NCBI GenBank assembly: GCA_964291265.2
Contig: OZ219747.1
Location: forward strand, 2,592,001 to 2,656,000
Origin: Alphaproteobacteria bacterium
GTDB lineage: Bacteria > Pseudomonadota > Alphaproteobacteria > SP197
Reading direction: 5' to 3'
Length of the DNA: 64,000 nucleotides
The notes under the pieces are model-generated. The model saw only the letters and a program-made list of their open reading frames with translations, searched no databases and was not told the origin of the DNA. Positions within the stretch are counted from its first letter, which is position 1. Each line of letters begins with the position of its first letter. This document shows, piece by piece, positions 2,634 through 4,958 of the stretch. The position numbers and the translations under genes are program-made.

Positions 2634-2769
2634 GTGTGCCAGCATCCATGTTTCCCGGCAAGGTTTTTTGCGGGTGTCCGTGGTGATGTTTTCTGTGGTT
2701 GTCCACAGCGGTCTGGGGTTCCGCCTTGTCGATGTTCTTGTCCTGCGAGCGAGGCGACATGCAGCTTGT

Positions 2770-3034
2770 GGTCCCGGCGGCATGGGCGGGTTGTTGTCCA
2801 TTGATCATGGTAACGTTACCGGCGAGTGCGGTCGCTTTGCCGCCGGCGTTCCCGGACATGGTAACGTTACCGTGTTTGATGAAGTTCCAGGTGTCATGCG
2901 TCCCGGCGGCATGAGCGAGTTGCCGTCCATTGATCACGGTAACGTTACCGATGAGCGCGGCCACCTTGCCGCCCAGCGTCCCCGGGCATGGTAACGTTAC
3001 CGTGATCAAGGGGGTTCCAGGTGTCATGTGTCCC
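2770..3034. repeat. Palindrome array of IS110 copy 2
   Basis: Mirror image of 1066-1330. Confidence 0.9.
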
Positions 3035-3314
3035 GTCCGTAGCCGCGCGGCGGTTCGATCTCCTCGAGAGCCTCGATGTCGGCCTCGACGATGATCTGCA
3101 GACGTTCTCCGTAAGCCGTGTCGCGCAGGGAGTCGGGAAGACTGTCGAGACAGTCTCGATAATGCTCCTGCAATGCACCGAGCTCGGCCACCGCATCGCG
3201 CCAGCGTTGCGCACGGGAACGACGGTCGCAGGGCTTTCGGTGGTGGACGGCAGGGATGCCGGCCTTGCGGCGTTCCCGATAACGGCGCTGCTTCTCGGCA
3301 GGGGTGAGGGCCAT
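3024..3314 (-). CDS. Accessory 96-aa protein inside IS110 copy 2
   Basis: Same as 786-1076. Confidence 0.7.
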   Translation of the reverse strand: MALTPAEKQRRYRERRKAGIPAVHHRKPCDRRSRAQRWRDAVAELGALQEHYRDCLDSLPDSLRDTAYGERLQIIVEADIEALEEIEPPRGYGRDT

Positions 3315-3343
3315 GAGGGTGTCTCCTTCGCTCACTCGCAAGG

Positions 3344-4291
3344 TCACGCCGGCGACCGTGCCGGTGCTTCGGGCGACCAGCAGCGCTGCTGTCGCAGCAA
3401 GGTGTTCGCCAGCACGATGAGCTTGCGCATCACGGCGACTATCGCGACCTTGTGGGCCTTGCCGGCGGTCTTGAGGCGCTCGAACACTCTTGCCAGGTCC
3501 GCGTTGAAGCGTGTCGCCGCGGTTGCGGCCATGAACAGGAGATCGCGTGGCCTTCTTCGCCCGCCTCGGATGTGCCGAGCACCGTGGTGCTGGCCGCTGT
3601 CGTTGGCCATCGGCGCCACCCCGATCAAGGCTGCCGCCTGACGGCGGTCGAGACTGCCGAGTTCGGGCATCCAGCAAAGAAGGGCCGCGGCGGTCACCGG
3701 ACCGATACCGGGGATCGAGATCAGGATGCCGTACTTCTCGGCCTGCTCGGGATCACGGGCGATCACCGCTTTGATCTCCGCATTCAGCCCCTCAATCCGA
3801 TCATCGAGATCGTCTGCCGAGGCCCTTGTGACGTTCTCGCCTTCGCCATCCACCTCATCTGCCACCTGCCTCAGCATGGTCCGCACGTCGACAAGCGCGG
3901 TACGCGCCACCAGGAGATCCTCCAGGTTGTTGAGGAAGGCATCCTGAGGAGCTACAGGCTCAAGATCGCCGAGCATCGTGCCGATCTTGGCCAGCATCAA
4001 CGCGTCGACGCGGTCGGTCTTGGCCAGATGGCCCAACGCCTCGGCGAAGCGCCGGGCCCGCAACGGGTTGACCAGGACAACCTCGAAGCCCCGGTCATGA
4101 AGACACTGGTGAACCTTGCGGTGATAGCGACCTGTCGCCTCCATCACCACACGGGTCACCTTGAGGCTGCGAAGCCATGTGTTCAGCGCCCGCCAGCTCG
4201 TGGCGTCGTTCGCAAGACAATGCGTCTGGCCCTCCGCACAGATGTCCAGACTGGCCTTGCTGACATCAATCCCTGCTACTACCTTGCCCAT
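3344..4291 (-). CDS. IS110 DEDD recombinase/transposase
   Basis: GIDVSK, MEATG, KTDRVDA, IPGIG and SG catalytic motifs; 315 aa. Confidence 0.96.
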
Positions 4292-4495
4292 CGTCCCTTG
4301 CTCCTCGCCTTATGATGATTCGGTTCAAACCCAGGCATCCATTCAGGACGCAAGGGACGCCAAGGGAGGTTGGCCGACCAAGCTGGCACACGGCTCCGTA
4401 AGGCCAAGGCGAAAACGGTCCGACCAACCTCCGCGGAGATCGTTTGATCCCCGCACCCCGCTCCCCTGTGCTTGATCGCGCAGGGGAGCGGAATC
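4292..4495 (-). ncRNA. Predicted IS110 bridge RNA (5' hairpin, target-binding loop, donor-binding loop); ends approximate
   Basis: Hairpin at 4458-4491. Stem 4365-4373/4424-4432 encloses target-matching guides 4407-4413 and 4383-4391. Stem 4292-4301/4350-4359 encloses donor-matching guides 4335-4342 and 4309-4313. Confidence 0.85.
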
Positions 4496-4958
4496 TCTCT
4501 GCAACCATAGACCGGGCCCTCTCCCACAGTCGGGGTTGTCCACATTTTCCCGCCGCCAACCGCTGTGGATGATTGCATCATCACGGGGACAAAACCTGGT
4601 CATATAAGGCGAACTGGCGGAAGGTAGGGGGTGAAAGTCCCCTGAAACGAAGGAGTAACCAAACCACGTTTCTCCGCGAGCCGTGCGTCGGTTCCCGCGA
4701 GGGGGCAGGCGAAGCGTCGGTAGCGGTACGGATGGGCAGGGCTAATGAGCACCGAAAAGTCCGTTGTTCGGGGTGCCGAGGCTTTCGCATCGGTCGAAGG
4801 CAACATCGCAGGCATCGATTTGGTGAGATGTCGGCGAGCCCCGCGGTGTCGGAGAACCCATGCACGTCCGCACGCCTTCTGTTGGGACCCTGGGAGGTCT
4901 TCGAACTATCCCGCCTGTCGTGGCGGGACCGTGTAGGGAAAGGAGAAAGCCGAAGCCT

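Follow-up and report, generated by a model that had tools for sequence, protein, structure and literature searches.

An IS621-type IS110 element whose predicted bridge RNA guide matches the 5' end of a group II intron

Introduction

Why does an IS110 element lie within the first ten nucleotides of a bacterial group II intron that is itself inserted in a transposase gene, and what directed it there? The locus lies in a window of 64,000 nucleotides from an alphaproteobacterial genome (contig OZ219747.1, positions 2,592,001 to 2,656,000). A first-pass annotation had noted that a predicted RNA of the element matches the intron 5' end; all of its coordinates check, and the observation is confirmed. 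The best explanation, to which a probability of roughly 0.85 is given, is that an IS621-type IS110 element carries a predicted guide of five nucleotides, CT and five nucleotides (5+CT+5) that equals intron nt 3-14, and that its RNA-guided insertion splits the predicted closing stem of domain I, probably disabling that intron copy. With equal confidence the event is read as ordinary bridge-RNA-guided insertion, the guide having acquired a match to a conserved stem in an intron that has spread recently. Element boundaries, guide-site identity, genome-wide site counts and the co-variation of guides and sites are read directly from sequence.

Nested elements at the locus

Three elements are nested in the window: an IS66 transposase gene contains an antisense group II intron, which contains the IS110 element. 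The C-terminal part of the IS66 transposase (1806..2633, minus strand) forms the 5' flank of the intron, and the N-terminal part (6519..7487, minus strand) forms its 3' flank. The intron as a whole, including the IS110, spans 2634-6518; nt 1-9 (2634..2642, plus strand) are cut off by the IS110 from nt 10-1919 (4609..6518, plus strand). Its features include a match of 169.7 bits to the domain I-IV RNA model RF02005 at 4634-4858, the GUGYG start described in the first-pass annotation, a reverse transcriptase/maturase ORF (4959..6446, plus strand; TIGR04416, 356 bits, cut-off 300) and a clean exon junction, for which contiguous empty IS66 alleles exist in the genome.

The resident IS110 element (copy 2; 2641..4608, minus strand) is 1968 nt long counting both CT cores. 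One core lies at the left end (4607..4608, minus strand; the left target/right donor junction) and the other at the right end (2641..2642, minus strand), where it equals intron nt 8-9 (AG on the plus strand). The core is doubled at the element ends and single in the empty site for all four copies in the genome, and a single CT is present at 27 empty intron sites and at one empty methyltransferase allele. Excising the element in silico yields GTGTGCCAGGCGAACTGGC, the same sequence as the 27 empty intron starts and the 5' end that had been expected from removal of copy 2 at its CT core.

The long right end of the element holds a 96-aa passenger ORF (3024..3314, minus strand), also present in relatives' elements; it has no match in Pfam or NCBIfam, and its look-alikes are all unnamed. 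A 79%-identical copy of the same region occurs about 40 times within another multi-copy element, and repeats of about 130 nt with a palindromic core occupy 2771-3035. The right part of a further IS110 copy (copy 1; 1..1459, plus strand) lies within a D12 methyltransferase gene at an off-target site that matches the guide at 8/10 positions; the empty allele of this site lies near 13290. Elsewhere in the window are an 899-aa Transposase_29 protein (7732-10431), whose N-terminus bears three repeated helix-turn-helix units, and a tandem array with a 24-nt period (50632-50991).

The recombinase and its family

The IS110 recombinase (3344..4291, minus strand; 315 aa) matches NF033542 at 202.6 bits (cut-off 140) and contains the domains PF01548 (DEDD RuvC-like) and PF02371 (Transposase_20). 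Residues D9, E51, D93, D96 and S232 align with the IS621 chain 8wt6_A (E 2e-28), and by these sequence criteria the element belongs to the IS621-type group of the IS110 family. Membership in the IS1111 group was considered and rejected, since the guide loops lie upstream of the recombinase gene rather than downstream. No end-to-end circle joint was found in the contigs of four runs (contigs can show only the presence of such a joint), and no sigma-70 match was found within the integrated element.

The predicted bridge RNA and the length of its guide

The left end of the element is predicted to form 5' stem-loops together with one loop for the target and one for the donor, with z-scores of -6.1 and -7.3 against shuffles. 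In the predicted fold, which runs on the minus strand, two 5' stem-loops occupy 4433..4500. The target loop (4365..4432) is closed by the stem 4365-4373/4424-4432 and encloses both target guides and a small hairpin. The left target guide (4407..4415) consists of the variable part 4409-4413 (TTCGC) plus the core, and the right target guide (4383..4391) consists of the variable positions 4385-4389, the core-pairing AG at 4383-4384 and an invariant scaffold base, G4391. The stem, left guide, small hairpin and right guide proposed earlier are all recovered in this fold, as is their arrangement in the LTG/RTG order of an IS621-type bridge RNA with a CT core, and the predicted guide accounts for the site.

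The predicted donor-binding loop (4292..4359) matches the element's own ends. The left donor guide (4335-4342) matches the right end plus C at 8/8 positions, and the right donor guide (4309-4318) matches with one bulge; right-donor pairing is discontiguous in IS621 as well, according to the available portion of PMC11208160. In this element the right donor is TAT and its guide AUA; relatives have TGT, with a guide of ACA or GCA.

How much of the target match is programmable can be judged from 14 aligned related RNAs, in which the scaffold is 90% conserved and two 5-nt blocks vary. The first-pass annotation had described a 14-nt programme ending exactly at intron nt 1. The match does end there in sequence, but 14/14 RNAs have a scaffold G at the guide position that faces intron nt 1, and guide positions +6 and +7 match their sites in only 42% and 37% of 19 guide-site pairs. 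The 14-nt programme is therefore rejected; on the aligned sequences, the variable guide is 5+CT+5 and the programmable target is intron nt 3-14. Pairing at intron nt 1-2 is no evidence that the guide aims at nt 1. Such additional pairing may nevertheless be helpful to this element, as extended right guides are to IS621 in the part of PMC11208160 available.

Target sites in the source genome

Four IS110 copies, all identical, are present in the source genome. Three lie at intron nt 8-9 with a 10/10 guide match, and the fourth is the methyltransferase insertion at 8/10, so most full copies match their guides, as had been predicted; copy 1, being outside introns, counts against intron targeting. 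Copies 2 and 4 occupy the 1919-nt ORF-bearing intron in different IS66 variants, and copy 3 lies at another exon, in an ORF-less intron of 94% identity. At least two insertion events are required, since nt 8-9 is occupied in both ORF-bearing and ORF-less intron types.

In 4.8 Mb, 28 empty sites match the 12-mer target perfectly, and 27 of these are intron 5' ends; 50 sites differ from it by one mismatch and 606 by two. Intron-like DNA makes up 0.95% of the genome, and the distribution of 12-mer sites exceeds chance. Three of the 30 perfect intron sites are occupied and 90% are empty. In a hand calculation that assumes an even choice among about 690 sites with two mismatches or fewer, the chance that three of four copies fall in the 30 perfect intron sites is about 3e-4, or about 6e-3 for two of three if copies 2 and 4 are a single event.

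The spread of the intron is recent (13 full-length copies are at least 99.8% identical), which bears out the earlier suggestion that it renews the targets. An ORF-less derivative with 14-15 copies (e.g., C2:857514) occupies a second IS66-gene site and has presumably spread with the reverse transcriptase of the full intron.

Remnants of insertions are also found. In a diverged intron (C2:3954245), the position used by the full copies is marked by 14 nt from the left end of a variant element, an older insertion than theirs; a 43-nt remnant lies outside introns (C2:4177119). An old 57-nt left end, a donor half-site, has at least 11 copies (1592-1650 and 13424-13482 in the window, and at least nine other places in the genome) with a left flank that matches at just 2/5 positions. 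It sits upstream of a D12 methyltransferase gene inside another multi-copy element, its left flank is constant, and its copies are probably one old insertion remnant that was later copied.

Six of 39 intron 5' regions in this genome carry deletions of 1-5 nt inside nt 4-13, over the IS110 site (C1:28489, C1:226541, C2:1430307, C2:1455002, C2:1456220 and C2:2242640). These amount to about five events, versus about four indel events in the whole of nt 14-335, and may have been left by the IS110, by faulty repair of the intron junction or by errors of assembly.

Consequences of insertion for the intron

An alignment of 13 introns pairs nt 6-10 with the end of domain I; two of these pairs show compensatory changes, and RNAalifold predicts this stem unprompted. 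The predicted partner at this locus is CCTGG at the end of domain I (4889..4893, plus strand), and the stem is cut by the IS110. The first-pass annotation had instead drawn a local GCCAG/CTGGC hairpin at the intron 5' end. Its arms are present in the sequence, but it shows no compensatory pair and is rejected as a structure, given the two in the stem by which nt 6-10 are predicted to close domain I. Because the IS110 falls inside this modelled stem, the interrupted intron is likely unable to splice or retrohome.

Exact excision would restore the intron, since the empty site equals the 27 intact starts; the earlier statement that precise excision restores the ribozyme is to this extent true by sequence. 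Such excision is likely rare. In vitro, excision of IS621 was weaker than its insertion by a factor of about 2,000, and handshake bases tune it, according to the text available from PMC13626964. By analogy, insertion would take the RNA described here from no Watson-Crick handshake pair to three handshake pairs, so the element would be favoured to stay inserted. The donor-loop handshake base and the target co-vary imperfectly across relatives, which limits this argument to the present element.

Guides and sites among relatives

Of 61 genomes, 9 have a match to the recombinase at E <= 1e-60, and close matches are confined to the source genus. A metagenome scan yielded five loci, two of them close, and a genome scan yielded 54, of which 51 are in a single genome of decayed copies; the related loci that bear titles are metagenome-assembled genomes of Alphaproteobacteria. 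In that single genome, about 50 decayed relatives (L033-L084) show many short deletions, and several have guides whose right arms still track their flanks.

Guides and sites co-vary, as the earlier proposal had anticipated. The mean match is 8.05/10 over 19 distinct pairs and nine guides, compared with 3.8 +/- 0.77 when permuted, and 0 of 10,000 permutations reach it. Elements that lack an end were left out of this set, as were L111, with ends mismatched after nested insertions, and L109, with a short left guide; L109 was put back for the tallies of 10 guides and 22 elements. The junction at the intron 5' end occurs only in the source genome among 33 genomes of the family, and the same intron 14-mer is present but empty in 4 of 24 relatives' loci. 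Like the 27 empty starts of the source genome, these begin with the predicted sequence. The guide is reprogrammed frequently, and the intron 5' end is one of its settings rather than a permanent partner.

Other guides lead to other parts of introns; the domain names used for these sites are our assignments from the general layout of such introns. In G010, a distinct guide matches the start of domain V at 10/10 positions, the element sits there (L099), and all seven empty perfect sites follow an intron reverse transcriptase gene. In G004, two of three RF02005 introns bear an element near the start of domain III with a 9/10 match, and the type 1 guide has no perfect site in five genomes. A single G004 intron (L096, G004:C1:1140500-1152000) contains two different IS110 relatives, one in domain I and one near domain III. 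The sole complete copy in G005 lies in an intron, and its guide matches at just 6/10 positions without wobble; counts for its wobble pattern resemble the reversed control. The G002 guide has no perfect site in G002 and two in G013, with no reverse transcriptase match nearby, and the pattern of the G009 guide has 11 matches in five genomes.

In total, outside the source genome 5 of the 22 complete elements have an intron site, as do 4 of the 9 guides. The three genomes with intron-resident relatives have 3, 8 and 22 RF02005 matches, an estimated 1% or less of their DNA. The remaining 17 elements are in ordinary genes (MTTB, SRAP and GMC oxidoreductase), mobile genes (rve, DDE_Tnp_1 and TnpB) or unclassified DNA. 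The genome full of decayed relatives has intron-like flanks in 0 of 57 cases. Intron-resident elements are scattered on the tree rather than forming one clade (four changes, at least two of them forced).

Nesting also occurs in the reverse direction: introns are inserted in the gene of this IS110 in G010 and G015, and intron reverse transcriptase genes lie inside the recombinase gene at L111:4307-5776 and L115:4541-5995. Read with a shift of one base, the guide at L085:166-210 matches the final bases of a group II intron present in L053. At L146:5585 a truncated element has the same right flank as this match; a complete junction is absent.

Alternative explanations

A single chance insertion into an intron, later copied along with the intron or its IS66 host, would reduce repeated targeting to inheritance. 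Copies 2 and 4 do share an exon site and sit in introns that are 100% identical, and the G004 type 1 element is at an identical position in two copies of one intron. Nevertheless, copy 3 lies in a different intron type at a different exon, the remnant with a variant left end lies in a further diverged intron, and 21 of 600 nt distinguish the IS66 flanks of copy 2 from those of copy 4. With the 10/10 guide match and the G010 replicate also left unexplained, inheritance is very unlikely. Selection of the site by DNA structure (the hairpin at the intron 5' end) or by protein, rather than by RNA pairing, is more improbable still. A 5-bp inverted repeat, pairable in 95% of cells, surrounds the site, and some IS110/IS1111 targets are potentially folded sites (PMC11187229, as far as the accessible text goes); yet the hairpin shows no compensatory change, and recombinases sharing about 80% identity have unrelated sites, which follow nothing but their guides.

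A broader proposal is that the clade is an RNA-guided retroelement parasite, repeatedly re-aimed at essential intron motifs (the 5' end, domain I, the starts of domains III and V, and perhaps the 3' end), so that the IS110 would ride on intron spread while knocking copies out; the small deletions would be its scars, and introns would invade the IS110 in return. As a description of the clade this is doubtful. The stricter form, in which the clade is a dedicated intron parasite or a brake that benefits the host, with guides selected to destroy ribozyme-critical motifs, is unlikely. In its favour, among the 10 guides that come with a complete element, 5 have one or more intron sites (four as the main site), four different intron motifs are used, deletions cluster over the IS110 site in 6 of 39 intron 5' regions, and introns insert in turn into the IS110 gene. 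However, most of the relatives' sites are not introns, nine-tenths of the perfect intron sites in the source genome are empty, the deletions could reflect repair of the intron 5' junction or assembly errors, and kin genomes are not independent.

The favoured reading remains ordinary guided insertion at intron nt 3-14. By analogy with IS621, the element would form a circle, express its RNA and exchange strands at CT. Guides would drift within the clade, as the tolerance of 2-4 mismatches at natural sites would permit, and would tend to persist on matching a conserved motif of a multi-copy, dispensable element. If guides are kept on such DNA, retrohoming introns, antisense in IS66 genes, would supply fresh, low-cost sites, and relatives would have reached other intron motifs separately. 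For this IS110, another mobile element likely serves as a landing site that can be renewed.

Comparison with known systems

The mechanism is that known for IS621, and conserved motifs of other mobile elements are known targets; the target class, a group II intron, is new within the open literature searched. In those openly accessible papers and preprints, no report was found in which an IS110 guide targets a group II intron. The word "intron" occurs 0 times in the main text of PMC11208160 (Durrant 2024), and the available portions of PMC5001619, PMC3205602, PMC6053426, PMC11376236 and bioRxiv 10.64898/2026.10.21.760802 describe no such guide. The accessible supplements of PMC11208160 and PMC11187229 have no relevant match, although their target tables could hold unlabelled intron sites.

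As in the parts of PMC11208160 and PMC13626964 available for IS621, the element pairs a DEDD and serine recombinase with a left-end RNA upstream of the gene; two loops in LTG/RTG and LDG/RDG order and a CT core at both ends are likewise shared (PMC11208160, same portion). In contrast to IS621 as described there, the variable target arms are 5+5 rather than 7+4 (nine non-core positions), the right end is long (703 nt) and contains a passenger ORF, and the target is a group II intron. The element is thus a compact 5+CT+5 orthologue, with mismatch data from natural insertions.

IS110/IS1111 elements on mobile or repeated DNA, in the text available from PMC11208160 and PMC11187229, include IS4321/IS5075 (Tn21 inverted repeats), IS1383 (IS1384 repeats), ISKpn4 (attC), and ISPa11 and ISPpu9 (REP). 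The present element resembles all of these in directing one guide to a conserved motif of a multi-copy element. Unlike theirs, its target lies inside a retroelement ribozyme, and its relatives have moved among several motifs of one element class; retroelement ribozymes are thereby added to the natural targets of bridge recombinases. ISEc11 and ISXne4 also combine one scaffold with differing guides that track sites in close relatives (PMC11187229, portion available), whereas the near-identical scaffold here carries at least 14 guide variants, of which several converge on group II introns. With one scaffold and at least 14 guides, many with known sites, the clade offers a natural series of reprogramming, in which changes in bridge RNA guides and the retention of particular targets become directly testable.

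Bacterial group II introns nested in insertion sequences are familiar, for example RmInt1 in ISRm2011-2, and the intron described here similarly lies in an insertion sequence transposase gene, that of IS66. What sets this RF02005 intron apart is a third layer, in which the intron is itself the likely guided target and one mobile element draws its landing sites from the spread of another.
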